From the NCBI GenBank assembly GCA_963666975.2, contig CAXVYR010000004.1, positions 1,472,001-1,536,000 on the forward strand: a stretch of 64,000 nt of DNA, read 5' to 3'. The DNA comes from Terriglobia bacterium (GTDB lineage: Bacteria > Acidobacteriota > Terriglobia > 2-12-FULL-54-10). The stretch's first letter is position 1. The number at the start of each line of letters is the position of its first letter. Shown here piece after piece: positions 2,121 through 23,509 of this stretch. Below the pieces are notes generated by a model. It ran no database searches and had not been told where the DNA came from. It saw only the letters and a program-made list of their open reading frames with translations. Both the position numbers and the translations under genes were made by a program.

Positions 2121-3985
2121 ATGCAAAGCCGTAGCAGAAAAGGAAAGATCGGTCCCAGGCGTCTCTCGGCATGGACCTGGCTTTTACTGCTGGGCGGTTT
2201 GCCGTTTTTGTGGCTGGCCAATTTTGCCGCAGCCCAGCAACAGACGCCTTCCAGCCTTCCGGGGCAAAGCGGCCCTGCCACATCCTCCCCCACAACCGAA
2301 CAGACAGCTTCAGAAACTCCGGCTGTTGAATTACTCAGCAAAGTCCTCCTCCGGCTTCCACGAGTTACGGCACAGGAACCACCGCCGGCAATCTCCAATT
2401 CGTGGAAGTGCGAGCGAGTTCGAATCTGGCGCGGATTACCGGCCCGGCCCGCGAGCGATCTTTTTTGACCGACGGTAACAACCATGCCATCGATTTTAGC
2501 TACCTGGAAGATTTCACCCGCGGCATGCACCGGCTGGAAGTAAATTCCGTGTTGCGCTATACCGACGACATCCGAACGGACCCGGAGCGCAACAGTGTCC
2601 AGCGCGCCTATTTCCGCATCAACGGCCCCCGCTCCGAATATAACTTCGGCGACTATCTGGTGAACTATTCCAGCCTCACCTACAACCAAAACCTCAAAGG
2701 GTTCCATTTCATTCAGAGCGCCCCCTGGGGGCAGGGATTCCGTCTGCTGGGCAACGCCGGGACATTTACCGACCGTTATGGTTCCCTGTTTCGCGAAGAA
2801 CTGCCGGGCAAGCCTTTCACCAGGGTGGTGAGCGGGCTCCGGGCAGAGCAAACGATCGACCGGGATAAGATGATCGCGCTCAATTGGTCTTACGGAAACG
2901 ACATCGCCGGTTCCCTTCCGGGCACCACAACTTTTCGCCCGGTGGTTGCCAATAATGTGGCGAGCTTGGATGCTCGGATGACATTCTTCAACGCCTGGAA
3001 TCTGGAAGGGGAGATAGCCTATAGCAGCCTGAGTCGGGATACCCGGAAGAGGATTGGAAATCGCAAGAACAAGGACTATGCCTTGCGGTTTGATAACTCG
3101 GTGCGGTTTGATAACTCGGTTCGCAAGGGACCCTGGAACTTCAATGTCTATTTTACGCGGATTATGCCCTCCTTCTTTGCGGTCAATGCCCGCCAAGTGG
3201 CGGACTTGCAGGATCTCCAGGCCCGGGCGAGTGTGCAGCTGGGGGAGCGGGTCTCCTTGCAGGGCAGCTATCGGCGCACCAATAATGACTTGCGGGGGCA
3301 AAACCGCAGGCCGGAGACGGTCTTCCAGATGCCCGATGTGCGCCTCAGTTTGCGGGTTGTAGGCAACACGCTGATCGACATGGGATACAAGGAGCGGCAC
3401 CAGGACCAGTTCGGCTCCGCTGACAGGGTAACCCAGACGCCGTTTTTCCAAATCGGCATTCCGATCTCCTCCAGCGTGCTCAGCTTTGGTTTCGAGCACC
3501 GTATCCATCTGGATCGGCTGGTGCGATCGAATCAGACTTCCAGCAACGATTTCTCGGTGGGATTCCGCAGCATCTTTAACGCCGGGGATTGGATGTTCAC
3601 TCCGCTGCTGCGCTATGAACTCAACCGGGAGATTTTTGACCGTGTGGACACCGGCAACAACAATCGCAACATCCAGGCCGGACTGATTCTAGATGCTCCC
3701 CGGTATTTCGTTTTTGAAGCTATGTTCCGCCAGGTGGGTGCGACTTTATTCCAGGACCGCCGGGTGCTTGATCCCAATGGGCTTCCGGTATTCGAGGTGA
3801 CCGGCCCCAGCGGCTTCCGCCGCCCGGCGTTTCACCTGGCCGTCACTTACAAGCTGCTCAATGACGAAAATCGGTTCATTACTCTGAGTTACGAGCGCAA
3901 CAACAACCTGTTTGCCTTGCCGGGACAGGATTTTCTTGAGAAGGTCATGCAGGCGACTGTAGTTTTTCGGTCCCGGCGTCAATAG
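2121..3985 (+). CDS. Predicted outer-membrane beta-barrel protein; single-base frameshift near 2400
   Basis: ORF 2121 gives a signal peptide and a P/S/T-rich linker and joins ORF 2402 (ISNS|VEVRA). The body shows alternating amphipathic strands and ends in a C-terminal VMQATVVF-like strand. Confidence 0.7.
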
Positions 3986-3987
3986 CC

Positions 3988-6388
3988 ATGTGGGTGATAC
4001 AAAAATTCGCGGCAGATTTCCTGGGACTGTTCCGGGCCGGCGGCTGGCGGGCTCTGTTCGGCTCTCTCCGGTCGCACCGCAATAGTTTGGCCATCTGCTT
4101 GGCCGTCACGCTCCTGGGATTTGGCATATGTTTCCATCAATTTTTCCCGCAGTCTCCGCTCCGCGTTTGTTTTCCTGGACAATGTGGAAGCCCGTTCCCT
4201 CGATGCGCGATTCCAATTTCGGGGGCCCGTGCCGCCGGGCGAGGAGATTGTGATCGTGGCTGTCGATCAGAAAACCATCGACCGGCTGGGATGGCCCTTC
4301 CCGCGCGCCCACTACGGGCGCATGCTACAGACGTTATCCGCCGATGGAGCACGCGTGGTTGGCTTCGATATGGCGTTCCCTTTCCCGGACCGCAGCAGCG
4401 GCGCGGACGTGCTATCCAAACTGGAAGAGGAATACCGGCAGAGTCACGGCTCTCGTTCCCAGGATGCTTTCCTTGAGCGTTTGCGGCTGCTACGGGAAGA
4501 AACCGACAGCGATGCCCAGTTTGCCAAAGCCATTGAAGAGGCCGGCAACGTGGTGCTGGGGCATCTGTTTTTTTACCAGCGCGCCGGGATTGAACATTTA
4601 CCCCCGGAACAGATCGAGGAGTACTACGAAGTGCTGGCTTTTGAGGCCTACCCCCAGTGGCGCAAGCTGGAAGTTTCCGAAAACGCTTCGGGAAATCAGT
4701 ATCCGTTTTATTTGGAGTCCCCGGTTGCCGTTGCCGTGGAGCCGAACCTTCCCGTTTTTGCCTATGCCGCCGAAAGCTATGGCGCGTTCAACTTCGAGGC
4801 TGACAATGACGGCACGTTCCGGCGCGCGCCCCTGATCTTTTCTTACAGCGATCCCAACCTCCCGGAGATCGAGGAAGAGTTCTATCCCTCCCTGGCCGTG
4901 CAAATAGCCCGGCTCTATTTAGGAGCGGGTCCCCAGGAAACCGTACTCTGGTTTGCCCCCAACGGACCGGAAAAGATTGAGATGGGCGAGAAAGAGATTC
5001 ATCCCGATGTGTCCGGGAAGGCTTTGATCAATTTTGCCGGGCCTAGCCAGACTTACCCGCATTACTCGTTCGCCGATGTCGCCGACGGCCTGACTCCCCA
5101 GGGCGCCTTCCGCGACAAAACAGTCTTGGTGGGAGCAACGGCCATGGGAATCGGGGACATGAGGCCCACGCCGTTTGAAAAGCAGGGGTATCCGGGCGTG
5201 GAGATCCACGCCAACGTCGTGGACAATATCCTCAACGACAAGTTCCTGCGCCGGGGCCTCAGCGAGGAGATTACGGACCTTGGGGTGCTGCTATTTTGCG
5301 GCCTGGTCATGGGTCTGCTCTTCGTTCTGGTGCGCCCGCTGATTTCGACCCTCCTGTACGGACTGGCTGCCGCGGGTTTGCTGACCTTCGTCTATTACCA
5401 TTTCGCCGTCAACGGGCGCTGGCTGTCGCTGGTCCTGCCTGCCGGCACTCTTTCTTTGAATTACCTGGGCGTCATCAGTTATCGGCTTCTGTTTGAGGAA
5501 AAAGAAAAACGCAAGGTGCGCGGCGCCTTCAGCCAGTACGTCGCGCCAGGCTTCATCCGGCAGATTCTAAAGGACCCGGGAAACCTGAAATTGGGGGGCG
5601 AAGAGGCGGAGCTGACCGTGATGTTCAGTGACATTCGGGGCTTCACCTCAATCTCGGAGAAGCTCACTCCTCCGGAGCTGGTGGAACTGCTCAACAACTA
5701 CTTGACGGAGATGACCGAAATTGTTTTTTCCAATCGCGGCACCCTCGACAAATATATTGGCGATGCGCTGATGGCCTTTTGGGGCCGGCCTTTTCTGGAC
5801 TTGCACGATCACGCCGCTCGCGCCTGCCAGGTTGCCTTGCAGATGGGAAGCAAGCTGCGCGAGATGAACAGCGTTTGGGTGAATCAGGGAAAGCCTCCGC
5901 TCCGGATCGGGATCGGGCTCAATACCGGTCCGGTGATGGTCGGCAACATGGGCTCGCGACGGCGCTTTAACTACACGGTGATGGGAGACCACGTGAACCT
6001 GAGCTCGCGCGTGGAGGGCCTGAACAAGGAATATGGCACCCAAATCATTTTGACCAAATACACTCACGATTCCGTGGCGGGCCAGTTTGTGACCCGCCCG
6101 CTGGACCTGATCCGGGTGAAAGGCAAGAACAAGCCGGTGACCATCTACGAACTGCTGGGCCCCGCCAGCGAGCAATCCCGTTATCAGCCGCTGTTGGGAG
6201 AGTTCCAGCAGGGGATGGACGCTTACAGGGCGGGAAAATGGGAGGCGGCGCTCGGAACATTTGAGGACCTTGCCGCGCGGCATCCCTCCGACGGCCCCAC
6301 GCAGGTATTTTTGAAGCGCTGCAAGAATTTCTTGAAGGAGGCTCCGGAAGACGTGTGGGATGGTGTCTACACCATGACCACAAAGTAA
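3988..6388 (+). CDS. CHASE2-domain class III adenylate/guanylate cyclase; +1 frameshift at the T run near 4120
   Basis: N-terminal TM, CHASE2 motifs (IVIVAVDQKT..GWPFPRAHY, GVEIHANVVDNIL), three TMs, and cyclase motifs FSDIRGFT, DKYIGDALMAFW, GDHVNLSSRVE. Lys in DKYIGD points to ATP specificity. Confidence 0.92.
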
Positions 6389-6432
6389 ATCTATTCGACT
6401 GCCGTTTTCCGTGACGGTACTCCGGTAAAAAA

Positions 6433-9400
6433 ATGAAGAAGCGACTCTGGAACAATAGAAAACTATTCTTGATAAGCGGGCTGCTGGCGGCTCTGGCCCT
6501 GGTATCGGCGCATAAGGGGCTGGCTCAGCGGCCGGCGAGAGCCGGAGCCATCCGCGTGGTCCTGCAACCGGGCGAGGTGGCGCGGCAGAGAGGACCTCAG
6601 GTAGTCAGGTCCACTGCCACTAAAGGCTACCGGTTGTTCTACCAGGACGTGATGGAAACGGGCCAGGGCGGCCGCATGCGCGCGCGGCTGGACGATGGCT
6701 CCATTCTCGCACTGGGGCCGCAATCTCGACTGGAGGTTGTGGAACACAACGCGGAATCGCGGCAATCCACTTTCCAACTGCAGTACGGCAAGGTCCGGTC
6801 ACAAGTGATTCAGCTGACCCAACCTGATTCGCGGTTCGAGGTCCAAACCAACACTGCAGTGGCTGGAGTCCTGGGAACGGATTTTGTGGTGGACGCCTTC
6901 AACCCGATTGCCACGCTGGTGCTTTGTATTGATGGACTGGTGTATGTCAGCAATATCGACCCGGCCGTGGCCGGCACGGTGACTCTGAATGCGGGAGAGC
7001 TGACCATTGTGCAGCAGGGCCTGCCGCCCCAACCAGCGCGGACGGCGACAGCCGAAGAGATGGAGGCTGCTCTGGAAGGGTCGAGCGGGATCGCGCCCCA
7101 GGCGGTGGCCGATGTTGGAACCGGCTTTGTGACGGCCGGAGAGGAGCTGGTCCTGGACGCGACGGATTCCTTTGTGACCGGCACGGTTGCCAGCTATCAA
7201 TGGACTATTATCCAGGCAGGGAACAACCAGACCATTTACAACCAGACGCAGAGCGATCCGCTGTTGATATTGGATACGACCACGTGGCAACCCGGCAACT
7301 ACAATGGCACTTTGACGATTACAACCGACAACAACGAGACTGCATCGGCGAACTTTGGGTTTGTGGTGCTGCCGCCCGCCTTTGCTAATACGAACCCGGA
7401 GGAAGTTATCCAGCAACTGAAGCTGGCCTATGAGACGCTCCAACCCACTGAATTCATGAAACTGTTCGACCCCGAAAAGTACGTAGGCTATGCGGCGCTT
7501 CAGGAGGCCGTGGAGACGTCGTTCCGGAACCTTTCCCAGAGCCGGGTGTTCGTGCGCAAGGCCAGTGGCCAAGTAATGGAGCAGGGGAATATGGCGATCT
7601 ATCAGGTGGACTTCGAGATCCAGTTCAGCACGAAGGCGCAGCCGGACGAACACTTTGTCGTGCAGGAACAAGTGACTTTGCGGATGGAGTCCGGCTCGGG
7701 CTGGCTCATCAGCGATGTTCCCCAGGGGTCGTTGGGGTCGGCGGGGTTGCTGGCGGTCCCGGGAGTGAATGACCCGACCCAAGTGAACACGGCCTCGAAG
7801 AAAGTGACGACGGGAATCGGGAACCAGGTGGTGGCGACACCAGGAGCGGACGGCGGAGGGGAAGTCCTGGTCAACGACTCCGACTCCGACATCACTGTTA
7901 TTTTCCTCCTGTCGGACGGAAGCACGCAAAGCTTTGACATCCCCAGCGGTGAAAGTCTTGACCTTAGTGACCTTATTTTCGAGGCTGCACCAGGGGTGCC
8001 ATCGGGGACGGAGACAATTTCGACGACCATAACCATCGGGGACAGCACCGTGCCGGGACCCGATATCACCGTAACCCTAACGGAACCAGAACCGGAGCCA
8101 GAACCAGAACCAGAGCCGGAGCCAGAGCCAGAACCGGAACCAGAACCGGAACCAGAGCCAGAACCAGAACCGGAACCAGAGCCAGAACCAACGGTGGAGG
8201 TAATAGCAGGCGAGGGCGGCGTAGGGGAAACCTTGGTCAACAACTCCGACTCCGACATCACTGTTACTTTCTTCCTGCCGGACGGAAGCACGCAAAGCTT
8301 TGACATCCCCAGCGGTGAAAGTCTTGATCTTAGTAACCTTATTTTCGAGGCTGCACCAGGGGTGCCATCGGGGACGGAGACAATTTCGACGACCATAACC
8401 ATCGGGGACAGCACCGTGCCGGGACCCGATATCACCGTAACCTTAACGGAACCAGAACCGGAGCCGGAACCAGTGCCGGAACCAGAGCCAGAGCCGGAAC
8501 CAGAACCGGAACCTCCTCCGGTGGACTTCATCCTTTCGCTTACACCCAGCACGCAACAGCAGGTGAATGCCAACATTCCCGTGGTGCTCCAGGCGGAAGT
8601 TGTGCCGCAGTCGGGGCATTCAATTTGCCGGTCACCGTGACGGTTACGGACGGAAACCAGATACAATACGACCCCATCTGTGGCAACCCTCCCGGGTTTG
8701 TGTCTTATACCGGAACGGCTGGGGTTCCGGGCAGCGGAATCCTCACCTTCGTTAGCAGCCCTCCCTATTCACCGGCCAGTTTCTGTGTGTCGGCGGGGCA
8801 GGGGTCTTCCAACTTCGATTCAGGCGTGGACTCGATTACGATCAGCGGCGCCGCTGGCAGTCAAAGTGTCCTTCTGGCTCACAGCTTCCAGATCGGCGTG
8901 CCGGAGATAGCAGTAACTTCAGTCACATTTTTCACTAATCCCTTTAACTGCTTCGGTGACCCGTGTACGTTCGATATCGCCGTGAATTCGATCTCGGGTT
9001 TCAACCTTCCCGCCACTGTTTTCCTCACGGGCCCCGGGAGTTTCATCAGCGGAAGCGGACCTGTCCTGAGCCCGTTGCCGGCGGAACTGTCCAGCGCGGA
9101 TTGTGGCCCCGAATCCGCTGGGAAGGTCGTGACGCCGGGCGGCTCTACGGTCTGTACGATCATAAACACCGCGCAGGGTGGTTTCAGCGGATCCAGAGAT
9201 GTGGAAGTGTTCGCCACCTTCGGTCCCGGCTCCGCGGCTATTCATAACTTTCAGGTTTTTGGGCTAGACTCCTGCCGGTCCAATTCGGGTTGCGGCGCCG
9301 TCCTGCAGAGTGACGCAGAACAAAGCTTCGGCAAAACCGCGCTTGGCTCCGGCCTGCCGAGTCTGACGATCTCACCCTCTGCAATTCAGTTTTCTCCGCT

Positions 9401-10280
9401 GCTGCCCAGGGAGGGCGACAAGGTCCGCATCCGGGCGCGAGTGGAGAATCAAGGAGATGGTGACGCCGTCAACGTGGCTGTCGCTCTGGTGGTGAACAAA
9501 CGGACCGTGGCCACCGAGTACGTGGACATTTCCGCCAATAGTTCGGAGGCCGTGGAACTGGAATGGGAGGCGTCGTTTGACCTGCGCCTGAGCGTGGCCA
9601 TCTCCGTCGATCCGGAAGGCCGAATTCCGCAAGAGGGGAACCTGCTCCGGATTGCTGCCGTTCCCAACCTGATCGTGGAGCCTTCCTTTTCCGCCTTGCC
9701 ACTTCAGGGGAGGTCCCTGGTGGTGGTGCCCAACGGAGAATGTGCCGGATTCCGTTTCTTGAACGGCACGCAATCGTTTTGTGGCGGCAACTCCGACTTT
9801 GAATTGAGCCCCGCCATTACAGCCGACGGGCAACTCCTGACGCAAGTTCTCGCTCTAACAGGGGGGGTCATTGATCTGGGGCCGCGACCGATCACAGGCG
9901 TTATGGCAGTCCCGGAAGCGGGATATCAGATCCGGACCGTGCTCCAAAGCGGGCACCTGTACGCGGTGGAGAGCAATCGGAAATACGCCTTGTTGTACGT
10001 GGCGAACATTCAATCGAATATCGACCCCCGCCTGGCTCAGCTTGCCGGGGACGGCGGTTCCGAGCCGCAAACCAGTTCAGGGGAACTGGCTGAGCTTTTC
10101 GAGCCGGACCTGCTGGAGAGAATGCTCGATCAATCCCTGATTACGGTGGATTTCCAGTGGGTCTACCTGGAAAATGGGTCCCGGCACTTTCAATATGGCT
10201 TTGCGGCCGGGGGCGGACGGGTGCCCCGTCCCTATGTTTTCCGCCAGCCCCGAGTGCCGTCCACGGCCCTGAAGCAGTAA
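6433..10280 (+). CDS. Large exported FecR-domain protein with PKD/Ig-like, NTF2-like, duplicated Ig-like modules, (EP)n linkers and a CARDB-like domain; frameshift at the G run near 8615
   Basis: Signal peptide, then FecR motif ([26 protein letters not shown]...[19 protein letters not shown]). ORFs 6433-8640 and 8625-10280 join as QSG(A)FNLPVTV, echoed later by [14 protein letters not shown]-like segment [20 protein letters not shown]. Confidence 0.78.
7868..8514 (+). repeat. Intragenic near-identical duplication (366-bp offset), each copy followed by a Glu-Pro (EP)n tract
   Basis: LVN(D/N)[27 protein letters not shown]...[16 protein letters not shown] occurs twice with a few substitutions. 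GAR-CCR repeats lie at about 8083-8189 and 8449-8514. Confidence 0.95.
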
Positions 10281-10316
10281 CCACGCCAGCCGGGCAGAGA
10301 AAGGCAGAGGTGTGAA

Positions 10317-10814
10317 ATGAGATTGGGAATATGGCTCATGCTTGTCCTGCTGATTGGGGTGATGACTGCTCCGAATCCAGCGGACGCAGCGGGCAGGAGA
10401 ATCTGGAATAGCCAACGGGCGGCAGGCGAGGAAGAACCGGCTAAAAGAGAAAATCCAGAACGGGCCATCACGCGATTGATCCGGCAAATGCAGATGGACC
10501 TGGAGGGCTCTTCCAGCCGGGGATTTCTGGGGAATATCAATTCCGCCAAGTTTGACGACTATCCCCGCTTTGAGGACATGATCGAGCGGCTGACCCGCGA
10601 AAACATTCTTCGAGTTTACTTCCGTCAGGTCAGCAATTCCATCCAGGGAGACAATGCCCAAACGATTATCGATGCGGAATTGGAGATGGCCCGGAAGAAC
10701 TCCCCCGCCCGGTTACAAAGGCGCCGCCAGCAGGTGGTCATCGACTTTGAACGAACCAGCAGAGGCTGGAAAATTATTAATATTACACCCCGCGGATTTT
10801 TTAGCCCCCTATAG
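10317..10814 (+). CDS. Exported NTF2/SnoaL-like fold protein
   Basis: Signal peptide, helix-helix-beta pattern and terminal GWKI motif; last gene of the cyclase operon. Confidence 0.65.
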   Translation: MRLGIWLMLVLLIGVMTAPNPADAAGRRIWNSQRAAGEEEPAKRENPERAITRLIRQMQMDLEGSSSRGFLGNINSAKFDDYPRFEDMIERLTRENILRVYFRQVSNSIQGDNAQTIIDAELEMARKNSPARLQRRRQQVVIDFERTSRGWKIINITPRGFFSPL

Positions 10815-14264: not shown

Positions 14265-14705
14265 GCGTTGTGGCAGGACATACAGCAGATCGAAGACCGG
14301 GGCGTCAAATACATCATAGCGGCCGATTTCGGACCCGGTCAGCCCCGTGCTCGTGTCGCCCAGGATGTCGCAGATAGCCTGTAGGTTCGCTTCGTCTAAT
14401 TTTGGTATGGCAGCCATCCAATCATATCCTTTTTCTTGCCGCCGGCCCTCATGAAGAAGCCTTCGGGACGGCAGAATGATCAGCGAAGAACTTCGGCGCG
14501 TTGTGGCAGGACATACAGCAGATCGAAGACCGGGGCGTCAAATACATCATAGCGGCCGATTTCGGACCCGGTCAGCCCCGTGCTCGTGTCGCCCAGGATG
14601 TCGCAGATAGCCTGTAGGTTCGCTTCCTAATTTTGGTATGGCAGCCATCCAATCATATCCTTTTTCTTGCCGCCGGCCCTCATGAAGAAGCCTTCGGGAC
14701 GGCAG
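14265..14705 (-). pseudogene. Duplicated (~210 bp x2) N-terminal fragment of a TIGR02391-like protein directly downstream of Fic
   Basis: Copies at 14265-14474 and 14498-14705. MAAIPKLDEANLQAICDILGDTSTGLTGSEIGR resembles the TIGR02391 N-terminus (from memory) and then breaks into unrelated sequence. Confidence 0.55.
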
Positions 14706-16248
14706 GAAGCGGTTCGCCGGCTAGTCCTTTCTTTACCAGCCCGGCCAGGAAATCGGCAAACGGGACGATATCCTCACCGATACTCGCTTTTTCGAGAGCA
14801 TCCATATAAATCTTGCGGTCTCCGACGGAGATGACCGTCCACGGATACCCGCCGGAGGCCAGCATCAAATTCATCAGAAAACGCCCCATGCGGCCGTTCC
14901 CGTCCATATAGGGGTGGATATAGACGAATATGAAATGGCCCAGCACAACGCGCACCGCCGGGGCCGTTTCCTCGCGCAGCAGATCGAAAAATGCGGGCAT
15001 CGCATCCCGCACCGCCTCGCGGTTAAGCGGCACGTGCATGGACCGGCGAATATAAACCTGCCCGTTGCGATAGCCCGCAAGGTCAGAGGCTTTTAACAAG
15101 CCGCCCGTTACACTGGGGGCAAACATTTCCCGATACCACGTTCCGTGATCTTCATCCGCGACCAGTCCGGGATTTTCACCATGCAGAACCCTGTTCACAC
15201 TTTTTTGAACAGCCTGATAGGCCTGCCAATATCCGCGCGCAGCCATAGCATTGCGCTGTTGCAGGTCCTCTTCGCTCGTGTCGGGATTCCACGCACCACT
15301 GCGGACACTTTCAATCAGCTGAGGGGTTACACGATACCCCTCGATCGACAGTGAATGATAGGCATCGGTTGCGTATGCATCATCGACATGTTTCATGTAA
15401 GCGTTCCTATCACGCGGCAACCCCGGAGCTTCCGGGAAGCCGCCGATGACAGGTTCCCGCATCTGCTGCCACAAGAGCCGTATGCGATTCACATACGGGG
15501 ATGTTTCGCGGGCTGGCAAAGCAAAGGCCGGCTTGTCCGTAAAGGGGTCGCTTTCACGCACATCATACCCTGCGGCGGACATTGTCTTCGTAATATCATC
15601 CGCGATGCGGTCGCGTCCGCTGTTGCGGAATGCACCGGCAAGCCGCCCGGCAATCGTGCTGTGCCCGCCCTCCAGCAACCGGGCAAGAATGCCTGAGGCA
15701 TCACGAATCATCAACAGCGCTGCACGAACATCCGTCGAATGGCGGGAAAAGTAATTGGGGGGAGACGCAATCAGGGCAGATTCCAGTGAGAAAATACGTA
15801 TTCCTTCCTTTTCCTCTGTGTCGGCTGCAGCAGGCAATGCGGCACGAAGGTCCAGAAGTGATGTTCCGTGCGGGAGCTTGGTTACTTTGTTGCGGGCTTT
15901 GGGAGACCTCACGACAAGCTGCCGGGGTACCGTCCAGTTGCCTCCATGCAGAGACAGGGACTGCTCTGGCGAGAGACACCAGCCTTTACCAAAGCGTTCC
16001 TCCAGATAGACAGCGCCAAAACGCCAAAACGATGCATACCACGCCGTGCTCTCTCCCTTCACTTCATCCGGGCGGCTCGGGATATACCATCCTTTTATGA
16101 CCTCCCGCAGAAAGCCGTTCGCAACGAGGCGCTCGCGATGGGTTCGCGACAAATCCCTTGCTCGTATGGCGGCCGCACCGCTCGAATTCTGGAGCTTGTG
16201 TAAAATTTCCAAAGACTGTGCGAGTTTTTCTGACGGTGCTGGCATCAA
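14680..16248 (-). CDS. Fic family protein with long N-terminal extension
   Basis: Fic motif HPYMDGNGRMGR; YHSLSIEG helix. Confidence 0.92.
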   Translation of the reverse strand: MMPAPSEKLAQSLEILHKLQNSSGAAAIRARDLSRTHRERLVANGFLREVIKGWYIPSRPDEVKGESTAWYASFWRFGAVYLEERFGKGWCLSPEQSLSLHGGNWTVPRQLVVRSPKARNKVTKLPHGTSLLDLRAALPAAADTEEKEGIRIFSLESALIASPPNYFSRHSTDVRAALLMIRDASGILARLLEGGHSTIAGRLAGAFRNSGRDRIADDITKTMSAAGYDVRESDPFTDKPAFALPARETSPYVNRIRLLWQQMREPVIGGFPEAPGLPRDRNAYMKHVDDAYATDAYHSLSIEGYRVTPQLIESVRSGAWNPDTSEEDLQQRNAMAARGYWQAYQAVQKSVNRVLHGENPGLVADEDHGTWYREMFAPSVTGGLLKASDLAGYRNGQVYIRRSMHVPLNREAVRDAMPAFFDLLREETAPAVRVVLGHFIFVYIHPYMDGNGRMGRFLMNLMLASGGYPWTVISVGDRKIYMDALEKASIGEDIVPFADFLAGLVKKGLAGEPLPAVPKASS

Positions 16249-16471: not shown

Positions 16472-17374
16472 TAGAGCAATTCTCCATATGCTGTATAGTA
16501 AGGAACGAGGATTTTCTGGCGATCCAAGCACAAGATGGCGAAGACGTATTCAGACGATTTGAGGCGGAAGCTTTTGGAAGCGCACGACCGGGGAGAGGGG
16601 AGCTTGGGGGAACTGGCGTGGCGGTTTGGGGTGAGCAGCCCGTGGGCATGGAAAATTTCCTCGCAGAGACGACGAACGGGACAGATGGAGCGAGTTCGGC
16701 AGCGGCAGGGTCGGCAGAGCCGGGTGACCGCGACGGTGGAGAGGCAGTTGAAAAAAAATCGCTCCGTGCCCAGGAACAGGACACGCCGGAGAACCGCCAG
16801 CGCCGCCCAGCGTGGCGGGAACAAGTAAGCCAGCTCAATCCGCAACGGCTGGTTTTTCTGTACGAGAGCGGAGTGACGACCCAGATGACCCGGCGCTATG
16901 GCCGCGCTCCACGCGGAGAACGAATCCGGGAGGCGACACCGGCAGGACACTGGAACACGCTGACCTTGTGGGGAGCGATGACCCAGCAAGGAATGTTGGC
17001 CAGTATGACGGTGGAATCTCCGACCGATGGGGATGTCTTTCTGGCTTATCTAGACAAAGTGCTCTGCCCGCAGATGCAGGCGGGCCAAGTGGTGGTGATG
17101 GACAACCTCAGCGTGCACAAGGTGGCGGGCGTGCGGGAGCGGATCGAAGCGGTGGGAGCCACCCTGCTGTACCTGCCGCCGTATTCGCCCGACTTCAACC
17201 CCATTGAACAAGCCTGGTCGAAAATCAAACAGAAGCTCCGCTCGGCCCAGGCCCGCACCGTGGAAGCACTGCAAGCCGCTGTCGCTCAGGCCCTAGCGAC
17301 CGTCACTTCACAGGATGCCACCGCTTGGTTCCACCACTGCGGACATGCTATACGGTAAATGGAGAAATGCTCTA
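16472..17374 (+). mobile_element. IS630 family element (orfA 16535, orfB to 17358, A-run frameshift near 16751); first catalytic Asp replaced by Tyr
   Basis: Terminal IRs TAGAGCAATTCTCCATATGCTGTATAG and CTATACGGTAAATGGAGAAATGCTCTA, with TA at both ends. Motifs [10 protein letters not shown] and [13 protein letters not shown] are present; LVFLYESG replaces LVFLDESG. Confidence 0.93.
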
Positions 17375-20300: not shown

Positions 20301-22031
20301 TGGGAAGCCTGGACTTCGTAAGTACCGGGAACCAATCGTTGGATTTCAAACTGTCCCTCTGCGTCGCTGCTGACGGTACGGCTCAATCCCGGAGGGTGTC
20401 CCATACATAGTTGAAGGTTGAACGGCGGTTCGGCCCGAATCGAATAGAATCGGGCCAAGCCTAAATCCTATAGAAGGAGAACCGCCGAATGAAGGGAAAA
20501 TATCACGTTTTGGAACTGGGTTCCAAGGGAGCCGAAGAAACCATCCAGAAGTTTTGCCAAACCAACGGACAGATGCTGTTGCCGGTGGTGGATCTGATCA
20601 CGGAGGCGCGTCTGGCGGTGGATGAGGTGATTGATCGGGCCGGGCGAGGTTTGATTGAAACGATTCTGAGCATGAGCGCAGAGCAAATCGCGGGGCCAAA
20701 GAGTCCCGGGAAGGCGAGCGGAGAGGTGCGCTGGCATGCCGGCAATTGGGGAGGGTGAAACTGGCCGATCGCCAGCTGCGGGTGGAGCGGCCCCGGCTGC
20801 GCCGGAAGGGCGGAGGGGAAGAAGCGGTGCCGGCCTACGAAGCGCTGCGGAAAAGCGAGAAGACGGGCGAGGAGATGTTCGAGGCACTGTTGAAAGGGGT
20901 TTCGACGCGGAACTACCGCGAGGTGATCCCGGAGATGGCCAACAGCGCTGGGGTGTCGAAGTCTCAGGTGAGCCGGGAAGCGGCCGAGCAAGGAGCGCGG
21001 CGGCTGGAAGAACTGTTGGCGCGGCGCTGGGAGGAGGTCGAGATTCTGGTGATTTACCTGGACGGAATGCGGTTCGGCTCCCACCACGTCATCAGCGCCG
21101 TGGGCGTGGACAGCGAGGGCCGCAAGCATGTGCTGGGGATTCAACTGGGCGCGACCGAAAACGCCGCTGCGGTGAAAGACCTTCTCACCCGCCTGCGCCA
21201 GCAAGGTCTGCGCACGGATCAGCGCTATCTGTTTGTGATCGACGGCGCCAAAGCGCTCCGCGCGGGGATCGAGGAAGTATTCGGCAGCAATCAGCTGGTG
21301 CAGCGTTGCCGTACTCATAAGCTGCGCAACGTGGCTGAGCGGTTACCAAAGGGCGACAAAATGCTGGCGAATCAGGTGCGGTCGCTGATGCGCGCCGCCT
21401 GGCGATTGCCCCAAGCCGAGGAAGGCATCGTGCGCATAAAGAAGCTCGCTGGGATGATCGAGTGCGATCATCCGGCAGCAGCCGCCAGCTTGCGCGAAGG
21501 GTTGGAGGAGACCTTTACGATCAATCGAGCCGACGTTCCTCCCAGCCTCCACCGCTGCCTGGCAACCACGAACCTCATCGAGAGCCCGCAGTCGGGCGTG
21601 CGGAAAAAGACTGGCAATGTTTGCCGCTGGCGCGACGGCGAGATGACGTTGCGCTGGGTGGCAGGAGCGTTTCTGCTGACCGAGAAGAATTTCCGGAAGA
21701 TCATGGGTTATCACGATCTCTGGGCTTTGGCATCGATTCTCGGCCGAAGTCCAAACGCTGCTTCCTCTCACAAGGAGAAAGTGGCGTAATATGAACTCAA
21801 CCCGCCGTCCCAACCTGCAACTGAGTTTGGGACACCTTCCAATCCCGTCGCCAGACGCTTCACCCTCACCGCCGTCCCCGCGAGGGGCGCTCCTGACTGA
21901 TCCTGCACCGTACCCCGCAGCGTCGCCATGCTCCCCTGTGCCAGCGCCCCTGTCCTTGCCCAGAAAAGCAGCGTGATCAGAAGCGCTGCCGAAAGAGCCA
22001 AACCTTGCACTACTGATTTGTATGCGTGCAT
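17372..22031 (-). pseudogene. Oar-type TonB-dependent receptor with carboxypeptidase-regulatory-like N-domain, interrupted by IS256
   Basis: The N-part (signal peptide, LRGTVQDQSGAPLAG...KRLATGL) and the C-part (SRTVSSDAEGQF...LPLNGRSY...RQIQFALRFSF) rejoin in frame when the IS and one TSD are removed. Confidence 0.92.
20392..21839 (+). mobile_element. IS256 family element; transposase 20489-21789 with 1-bp frameshift near 20740
   Basis: IRs GAGGGTGTCCCA.../...TGGGACACCTTC; 8-bp TSD CAATCCCG at 20384-20391 and 21840-21847; motifs GVSTR, IYLDG, VIDG, QRCRTHK, TTNLIES. Confidence 0.95.
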
Positions 22032-22223: not shown

Positions 22224-23427
22224 TGAGTTTTGCGGCAGAATCTAATACCTAAAGAAGGGGGACAAGCCGTGAAACAAAAGCGATTCAGCGTGGAGCAGAT
22301 TGTAGGAGTGTTGAAGCAGGCAGAGGTGGGGGTGCCGGTAGGGGAGATGGTCCGGAAGGTAGGGATCTCGGAGCAGACGTTCTACCGCTGGAAGAAGCAG
22401 TACGTGGGGCTGGAGATCGACCAGGTACGACAGCTGAAGCAGCTGCCGGAGGAGAACCAAAGGTTGAAGCGGTTGGTGGCCGATCTGACGCTGGACAAGA
22501 CGATGCTACAGGACGTTTTGGCAAAAAAATTCTGAAGCCCTCGCGACGCCGCCAGGTAGTGGGATACCTGTGCGGGGGCTATCGGGTAAGCGAGCGGCGG
22601 GCGTGTGCGGTGTCACATCTAAACCGTGGAACCTGCCGATACCAGAGCCATCAGGACCCTCGGACGGAACTGCGGATGCGGATCCGGGAGATGGCGCAGG
22701 TGCGGATTCGATATGGGTGTCGGAAGATTCTGGTATTACTGCACCGGGAAGGCTGGCAAGTGGGAAAGACGATGGTAAGCCGGTTGTATCGGGAAGAGGG
22801 ATTGGCGCTACGGCGGACGGTGCCGAGGAGACGCCGGGTGGCGGTAGAGCGGCGGGAGAGAATCAAACCGGCAGCACCGAACCAGGTGTGGAGTCTGGAC
22901 TTTGTGTCGGATCAACTGGCGGACGAACGAGAGTTCCGCGCGCTCACGGTGATGGATGCGTACACGCGGGAGAGCTTGGCCATCGGGCTCGGGCAGAGTT
23001 TGAAGGGGGAAGATGTCGTGCGGGTGTTGCAGGGAATCCAAAGGGATCGGGGTGGACCGAAGAGGCTGTTCTGCGACAATGGCTCGGAGTTTTCGAGCCG
23101 GGTGCTAGACCTGTGGGCGTATCAGAACGGGGTGAAGATCGATTTCTCACGGCCCGGCAAGCCGACCGACAATGCGCGCATCGAATCGTTCAACGGGACG
23201 TTCCGGGAGGAGTGCCTGAATGTACATTGGTTCACAACACTGGGAGAAGCCAGGCAGTTCATCGAGGCTTGGCGGAGGGAGTACAATGAGAGTCGTCCTC
23301 ACAGGGCCCTGGGGGAGAGGACGCCGAACGAGTTCGCCTTTCCGATTGCAGCTTCGCTGCAATCGGAAAGGCCTGGAAACAGCCCAAAACTTACCCTGAA
23401 ACTGGTACAAAAATCCGGGGCCCCTCA
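22224..23427 (+). mobile_element. IS3 family element (orfA ~22270-22535, orfB, -1 frameshift at GCAAAAAAAT)
   Basis: TG...CA ends with imperfect IRs; DDE motifs WSLDF, CDNGSEF, NARIESFN, RPH. No target duplication is visible. Confidence 0.92.
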
Positions 23428-23509
23428 AGTTCAGAGGGAAGTTGCGGACCGGATGGATGCAATTCTGAATCCGGTGGCTGTCAAATCAGACACAGACAGA
23501 CCGAACTGA
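23428..23509 (+). pseudogene. Possible extreme C-terminal tail of a tyrosine integrase, cut by IS3, abutting the tRNA 3' end
   Basis: VQREVADRMDAILNPVAVK resembles integrase C-terminal helices; the stop lies about 20 bp from the tRNA CCA end. Confidence 0.4.

Follow-up and report, generated by a model that had tools for sequence, protein, structure and literature searches.

Decay of one copy of a conserved gene set for an outer-membrane barrel, a CHASE2 cyclase, a giant FecR protein and an NTF2-like protein in a Terriglobia bacterium

A 64,000-nucleotide (nt) stretch of contig CAXVYR010000004.1 from a Terriglobia bacterium (assembly GCA_963666975.2; the whole stretch is hereafter called the window) contains, at positions 2121–10814, four genes that encode an outer-membrane β-barrel, a CHASE2 class III nucleotide cyclase, a giant FecR protein and a small secreted NTF2-like protein. 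The module that these genes make up is real and conserved, and its parts list resembles that of the NsrA–CyaK system of Sinorhizobium meliloti. In this genome, however, the module is being lost: the signal-peptide part of the barrel gene has been lost through a 10-nt deletion, the giant gene has been split by a 1-nt deletion, and in the assembled strain the cyclase gene additionally lacks 2 nt. The reading that we favour, with somewhat better than even confidence, is that the window holds one decaying copy of an envelope module, known so far only in genomes that carry labels of the Acidobacteria type, that works like NsrA–CyaK. A preliminary description, made from the letters of the window, had proposed a four-part architecture that it did not recognise as a described system. 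All four of its fold and domain calls were borne out by Pfam, AlphaFold2 (AF2) models and Foldseek, and our literature search found no published description of the four-gene form. In what follows, G000 denotes the source genome and other G numbers denote genomes of relatives.

According to the list of open reading frames (ORFs) and their translations, seven long ORFs on the + strand make up the four co-oriented genes (Table 1). Genes 1, 2 and 3 each consist of two overlapping ORFs and carry one frame break each, and gene 4 is a single ORF. The intergenic gaps of 2 nt (genes 1 and 2), 44 nt (genes 2 and 3) and 36 nt (genes 3 and 4) agree with the preliminary description, as does the presence of an export signal or membrane segment in every product. 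When the translations were inspected by eye, the N termini of genes 1, 3 and 4 displayed a basic stretch followed by a hydrophobic stretch and an Ala-rich end, which is signal-peptide-like, and in gene 2 CHASE2 was preceded by a hydrophobic helix and followed by a block of hydrophobic residues. Promoter and terminator scans scored the real sequence no better than shuffled sequences. The earlier statement that the system lacks an extracytoplasmic function (ECF) sigma factor also holds, given that the window contains zero Sigma70_r2 matches and that the nearest one lies more than 170 kilobases (kb) away. Sequence searches against Pfam returned zero matches for genes 1 and 4, and NCBIfam returned below-cut-off matches only (LipL45, Lsa33, FecR and low-complexity matches on the EP repeats). 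As read evidence, contigs of four public sequencing runs from four studies were used, each of which holds 97–98% of the sampled words of the stretch, at depths of 4 to 12.

The fold of the gene-1 product was assessed through its intact orthologue in G004. This orthologue has 80 relatives in a large protein collection; the named ones are all hypothetical proteins of Acidobacteria or Terriglobia, and none of the 80 has a Pfam domain. Its AF2 model (48 relatives in the alignment; predicted local distance difference test score (pLDDT) of 83.4, predicted template modelling score of 0.74) contains a disordered N-terminal stretch and ~26 strands, as counted from DSSP elements, and has no plug. Every Foldseek match to this model is an outer-membrane barrel, and the lowest E-values belong to the pilus ushers FimD and PapC. 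In a structure search over 48,161 representative chains, MtrB (PDB 6r2q, chain B) ranked first, with a Z of 19.0, 466 residues aligned and a root mean square deviation of 4.7. Pfam assigned no family to gene 1 or to the G004 orthologue at E ≤ 0.01, and specifically no Plug, TonB_dep_Rec, Slam barrel or TPR_Slam domain. These results support a stand-alone, non-TonB barrel, as had been proposed. In gene 1 itself, the barrel profile match spans 551 amino acids (aa) of open frame; the barrel frame is open from 2330, and its first start codon is a GTG at 2402; the protein as assembled has no signal peptide. Identity with the Slam, or type 11 secretion, barrels failed on the empty Pfam result, and membership of the MtrB/PioB porin family was rejected for want of a Pfam match, likeness in fold being the sole link. 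The N termini of the orthologues share a conserved stretch, Q-Q-x-P-S-x-L/V-P-G-Q/S (window 2200–2260), right after the signal peptide and before the disordered linker. This stretch might be a periplasmic docking peptide.

The cyclase encoded by gene 2 gave strong Pfam matches to CHASE2 (PF05226; 1.9e-60) and Guanylate_cyc (PF00211; 5.6e-27), and its nearest solved relatives are the adenylate cyclases 6fht, 2w01 and 3r5g. Residues D504, K544, D548, N626 and R630, candidates for the two metal Asp, the substrate Lys and the transition-state Asn and Arg, are invariant across 33 sequences. G000 encodes just one other CHASE2 protein, a 655-aa histidine kinase on contig C3 that adjoins an NtrC-type (sigma-54 activator) response regulator. 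Upstream of this kinase (G000:C3:1002000-1016000, locus L023) are two small unannotated ORFs (193 and 167 aa) as well as a gene for a TPR protein that matches TPR_Slam weakly.

Gene 3 would encode a protein of ~1280 aa if it were whole; its truncated N-terminal FecR piece comprises 735 aa. Pfam matches and repeat positions confirm the anticipated combination of a FecR protein of this length with Ig-like modules, (EP)n spacers and a Cys-containing end. Across the family, two parts of the giant exhibit 50–67% identity: the head of ~440 aa (FecR, PKD and NTF2-like) and the tail of ~550 aa, which contains CARDB and is rich in Cys. The middle, which is assembled from Ig-like, He_PIG, cadherin-like and CARDB modules, varies in content and length, and totals range from the ~1280 aa found here to 4553 aa (orthologues, 1485–4553 aa). 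A search with the FecR head among 1.84 billion representatives gave 6114 matches at E ≤ 0.001, many of them N-terminal in proteins of 1000–4349 aa. Searches of PDB sequences returned zero matches to the FecR-head profile at E ≤ 0.01 and a sole, weak match to the C-terminal part of gene 3, a domain of a cell-surface protein (0.0079). The last 217 aa of gene 3 scored at best 0.81 in an ESM Atlas search, under the level for a lead. Within the stalk, at window 7830–8520, there are two near-identical modules of ~85 aa, each followed by an (EP)n linker, a pattern that resembles a recent internal duplication. The short-read contigs of all four runs fragment over this interval, with depth of up to 150–330.

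The gene-4 product has 132 relatives, none with a Pfam domain. Its AF2 model (pLDDT 83.7, with a core above 93) and Foldseek identify the alpha+beta cone fold of the NTF2-like superfamily: matches are to NTF2-like and SnoaL folds, among them 3rob (TMt 0.75–0.77), 3b8l and SnoaL2, with 141 matches at E ≤ 0.001. Gene 4 is paralogous to residues 321–432 of gene 3, with 26% identity and a pairwise E of 5e-7. In a 230-aa metagenome protein, P0142, the end of CHASE2, up to the start of the second membrane helix, is joined directly to an NTF2-like signal peptide and body. This arrangement resembles a deletion of the remaining cyclase and the entire giant gene, and it could also be an assembly artefact.

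The set recurs well outside the window. Intact barrel–cyclase–giant–NTF2 sets are found in three genomes of the same family (G004, G005 and G008) and in two of another family (G183 and G274), and the relatives that retain an intact set come from soil and groundwater. G020 has the first three genes together, and its NTF2 gene is found at the end of a giant frame of 4553 aa. Of 301 genomes that sample the phylum, four matched the barrel profile, one of them being G000. When one genome per species was scanned (185,579 species), the profile identified 34 loci, including contigs of G004, G005, G008, G020 and G027; by title, 33 of these are from Acidobacteria, Acidobacteriota, Terriglobia or their subgroups and one is from an 'uncultured bacterium'. 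Neighbouring genes were searched for by tblastn, and 31 loci, those with at least 658 nt after the barrel, were assessable. A CHASE2 gene follows directly 3′ of the barrel in 24 of the 31, placed between the barrel and giant genes with gaps of ~100–220 nt or overlaps. Seventeen loci combine the cyclase with at least 4 kb downstream, and in every one of them a FecR head comes next. The small NTF2 gene was detected in 12 of the 34 loci; for most of the rest, the contig or the 10-kb flank stops short of where it would lie. One locus (L034) has an NTF2-like match alone after the barrel, one (L048) has nothing there and in one (L058) the barrel itself is partial. Among 41 relatives, the barrel is present in six, namely G000 and exactly the five genomes with FecR-head matches in open frames of more than 1400 aa; because these genomes are related, this co-occurrence is a pattern and not a statistic. 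Short FecR proteins adjoin CHASE2 cyclases in G017 and G025. The gene order is beyond chance, because the same order recurs in other species, and the conserved synteny for which the preliminary description had called is thus present.

In G000, each of the three frame breaks was compared with the orthologues and the contigs of the four runs. The gene-1 break lies between ~2295 and 2375 by orthologue alignment and is placed at ~2332 by the runs; a T6 run at 2461–2466, considered as the site, was ruled out by the same alignment and by the barrel frame being open from 2330. In two runs (X8 and X9; depths 4.1 and 5.8), position 2332 is followed by 10 additional nt that bring the signal peptide and the barrel into one frame; these 10 nt are absent from the window and from the remaining two runs. 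The two runs that have the 10 nt lack 1 nt at 3698, and this loss shifts the frame inside the conserved motif APRYF. Gene 1 is therefore broken in two different ways in the population. The gene-2 break is at 4121/4122, where all four runs have two extra letters (GC) after 4121 that restore the frame and the consensus ...TLLGL...; this break is private to the assembly, being either an error or a strain difference. In gene 3, the G4 run shows no indel in any contig that spans it, in any of the four runs, and the frameshift is kept in every source. Additional differences in gene 3 are the absence of 1 nt at 9745 in one run and of 12 nt in an EP array in another. Because two of the three frameshifts are found in independent read-derived contigs, this copy is a decaying operon, the very outcome that the preliminary description had set against its own proposal. 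For annotation, genes 1 and 3 are best called pseudogenes here.

Comparison with near relatives points in the same direction. With these queries, the same-genus genomes G001 (95% complete) and G002 (83% complete) yielded no barrel, giant FecR protein or NTF2 gene; G002 gave a weak match to a short FecR protein (9.9e-6). The complete genome of G003, of the same family, contains the NTF2-like gene alone (locus L025, G003:C1:1674000-1693900; 10001–10723, − strand), the other three genes being cleanly absent. This gene sits between a MoaD-like gene and a 426-aa gene, which are the flanks of the full cluster in G005. The MoaD/MoaE-type genes that lie downstream of the set in orthologues are located on contig C2 in G000, away from the set. 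Three types of transposase are encoded near the cluster: DDE_3 (16618–17358), Mutator (20746–21789) and an IS3-like pair of HTH_Tnp_1 and rve (22230–23509). These breaks, absences, the NTF2-only genome, the flanking genes on another contig and the transposases fit together as the loss of the module in this lineage.

The recurring core of the module consists of the plug-less ~26-strand barrel, the giant exported protein and the small secreted NTF2-like paralogue, with a CHASE2 class III cyclase encoded between the barrel and giant genes in most loci. In the giant, a conserved FecR–PKD–NTF2-like head and a likewise conserved CARDB/Cys-rich tail are connected by a stalk of greatly varying length, built of Ig-like repeats with Pro-rich linkers. 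In the mechanism that we propose by analogy with NsrA–CyaK, the FecR head may be periplasmic and may modulate the CHASE2 sensor through direct contact. The Ig-like chain seems too long for the periplasm, and we therefore infer that the giant crosses the outer membrane, for which the co-encoded wide barrel would be the obvious route. The barrel might hold or thread the stalk, placing the tail outside the cell, where the giant would be surface-exposed and where surface events could lead to changed synthesis of cyclic nucleoside monophosphates (cNMPs).

Several observations weigh against this interpretation. No prediction made here gives contact between any two of the four proteins; for the periplasmic part of CHASE2 (residues 6–385) with the FecR head (32–257), complex prediction scored 0.08 and 0.07, relative to a mark of 0.32, values that speak neither for nor against an interface. 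Four loci (L055, L056, L057 and L060) contain the barrel, the NTF2 gene and a FecR giant, whose length ranges from 1465 to more than 3300 aa, but no cyclase, so that the job of the core may be something other than signalling. In G027, the barrel and the giant are on different contigs and the cyclase is beside neither. The gene upstream of cyaK on S. meliloti pSymB encodes a 1190-aa, NsrA-like protein with FecR, TPR repeats and a weak terminal barrel match; hhalign compared the barrel profile with this protein and found no sequence similarity (probability of 0.2%), although distant homology may have escaped it, one side of the comparison being a single sequence. Furthermore, contigs, as distinct from raw reads, drop rare variants, and minority intact alleles would be invisible in them. 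Finally, a joint function could persist among the 735-aa FecR piece, gene 4 and the cyclase, which is intact in all four runs. The wiring to cNMP synthesis that had been proposed from the window could accordingly apply to the 24 of 31 loci with a CHASE2 cyclase and not to the four with barrel, giant and NTF2 alone, which indicates that cNMP output is an add-on and not part of the invariant core.

The same four cyclase-less trios among the 31 assessable loci are what would be expected if the barrel, giant and NTF2-like protein formed an export-and-anchor system for a surface fibre or adhesin, along the lines of an usher, or of a two-partner pore and the cargo that it exports. Such a system would do no sensing, and the cyclase would be a mere co-regulated neighbour or would sense something else. 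The stalks, built over ~1280 to 4553 aa from modules typical of surface proteins, and the pilus ushers FimD and PapC at the top of the Foldseek E-values are consistent with this alternative. We nevertheless find it doubtful, since the cyclase gene lies between the barrel and giant genes in 24 of the 31 loci at the close spacing described above, FecR proteins adjoin CHASE2 proteins in unrelated phyla (PMC5192318 and PMC9239204) and NsrA, a FecR–barrel protein, is genetically required for CyaK signalling (PMC7529298).

A further possibility, which we regard as unlikely, is that the barrel, the giant and the NTF2-like protein form a fibre of an undescribed kind that passes through the outer membrane. 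The barrel would then enclose the Pro-rich stalk in the way that MtrB encloses MtrA, the head would bind the NTF2-like partner through the domain paralogous to it, and a pull or binding event at the Cys-rich tail would move the periplasmic FecR head against CHASE2, which would make the assembly a contact or mechanical sensor. If true, this would explain for the first time, in physical terms, what it is that CHASE2 domains read.

It is very improbable that all three frame breaks are assembly errors and that the operon is intact and working. The assembly does have private differences, in that the 2-nt gene-2 break and the 18-nt duplication in gene 1 are absent from all four runs, and gene 4 and the remaining parts of genes 1 to 3 are intact. 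By contrast, the gene-3 break is identical in the contigs of four runs from four studies, and the gene-1 break is present in two of the four runs, the other two having a different inactivating indel. None of the 45 other ORFs in the window has a domain split over two frames, as judged by one Pfam scan, and the set was not found in the same-genus genomes. Least probable of all is a regulatory role for the breaks, as phase variation or programmed frameshifting at the G run that switches a surface protein: surface proteins are often phase-variable and the gene-3 break does lie in a homopolymer (G4), yet four Gs are a short run for slippage, no length variant of at least 10% was seen in the four runs (although contigs hide minor variants), the orthologues are one unbroken open frame, and the gene-1 lesion is a 10-nt loss whose repeat structure is just a 2-nt AC overlap.

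Table 1. Features of the four-gene set in the window.
Feature	Position	Strand	Basis or remark
Gene 1, ORFs	2121–2468 and 2402–3985	+	
Gene 1, 5′ part: signal peptide and conserved N-terminal Q-x-P...PGQ stretch	2121–2332	+	Frame 2121; orthologue homology ends ~2332
Gene 1, barrel part: plug-less outer-membrane β-barrel, ~26 strands	2333–3985	+	AF2 model of orthologue, Foldseek, profile
In-frame 18-nt tandem duplication (RFDNSV twice)	3086–3121	+	Private to assembly; absent in 4 of 4 runs
Gene 2, ORFs	3988–4476 and 4121–6388	+	
Gene 2: CHASE2 class III nucleotide cyclase	3988–6388	+	Pfam; CHASE2 ~4166–5305, cyclase domain ~5609–6142
Gene 3, ORFs	6433–8640 and 8625–10280	+	
Gene 3, N-terminal part	6433–8616	+	Signal peptide, FecR, PKD-like, internal NTF2-like, two near-identical modules with (EP)n linkers
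Gene 3, FecR	6646–6942	+	Pfam PF04773, 6e-16
Gene 3, PKD-like	7129–7353	+	Pfam, 2e-6
Gene 3, internal NTF2-like domain	7393–7728	+	Paralogy with gene 4
Gene 3, (EP)n arrays	8083–8190 and 8447–8513	+	
Gene 3, frame-switch site, G4 run	8613–8616	+	Orthologues continue through ...VVPQSG-F/A...
Gene 3, C-terminal part: Cys-rich Ig-like region, CARDB, conserved end of ~200 aa	8616–10280	+	Separate ORF without signal peptide
Gene 3, CARDB	9357–9629	+	Pfam, 1.5e-8
Gene 4, ORF	10317–10814	+	
Gene 4: secreted NTF2-like protein, intact	10317–10814	+	AF2 and Foldseek

The surroundings of the set contain further genes. The DNA immediately downstream of the broken cluster is mobile; there, the transposase genes surround an intact 1028-aa OMP_b-brl_4 barrel and a Fic-domain protein is encoded upstream of them in window coordinates (14680–16248, − strand). 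An ORF that runs off the window start (2–1009, − strand) encodes a thrombospondin C-terminal region (TSP_C, 8.3e-27), which is mainly an animal domain.

The module bears on what activates CHASE2 domains, for which our literature search found no established ligand or activation mechanism and found NsrA–CyaK as the sole genetically studied input route; one report states that the factors sensed by CHASE2 are unknown (PMC5192318). This clade offers a naturally dissected version of that route, in which the barrel, the FecR head and the cyclase are each encoded by a gene of their own, along with natural controls in the form of the cyclase-less loci, the NTF2-only genomes and this decaying copy. Each contact is therefore testable on its own in the intact orthologues.

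Four known systems share parts with the set. Like the FecA–FecR–FecI system, it places a FecR domain (PF04773) in an envelope relay with an outer-membrane barrel; unlike that system, it has no ECF sigma factor in the window and no match to a plug or TonB receptor, and its FecR protein has a signal peptide of the cleavable type in place of a cytoplasmic anti-sigma part. Identity with a Fec-type system was ruled out by the lack of an ECF sigma factor in the window and by the plug-less gene 1. MtrB, the best structural match to gene 1, is a wide, plug-less, ~26-strand barrel that sheathes another protein within MtrCAB. The two share only ~9% identity, gene 1 has no Pfam match, and there are no cytochrome genes nearby here. 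Closer in gene content are the Burkholderia 'BiofilmReg' operon, which encodes a LysM–FecR protein, a CHASE2 histidine kinase and a DUF4136 protein (PMC5192318), and a CHASE2 cyclase cluster of Campylobacterota (PMC9239204). In both, a secreted FecR protein adjoins a CHASE2 sensor and a small extracytoplasmic fourth protein is present, as in the window; unlike here, the FecR proteins are short and no dedicated 26-strand barrel is described, and the outputs or partners differ: one has a kinase, the other a TPR protein along with a phosphodiesterase. That FecR and CHASE2 are paired is itself thus already in print.

The nearest counterpart is NsrA–CyaK, with which CyaD1/CyaD2 may be grouped. NsrA is genetically required for signal-dependent cAMP synthesis through CyaK (PMC7529298, PMC13001267) and its barrel occupies aa 600–1200 (PMC7529298). 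There, FecR and barrel are fused in NsrA; here, they are separate genes on either side of the cyclase gene, with the barrel gene first, a TPR region was not found in the FecR protein, which is instead of giant size and contains Ig-like repeats, and a fourth, NTF2-like gene is added. The earlier suggestion that the receptor is split over two genes relative to NsrA fits the domain content and is not matched by sequence similarity between the barrels. In both systems, a CHASE2 class III cyclase adjoins one or more envelope partners that supply a FecR domain and an outer-membrane barrel.

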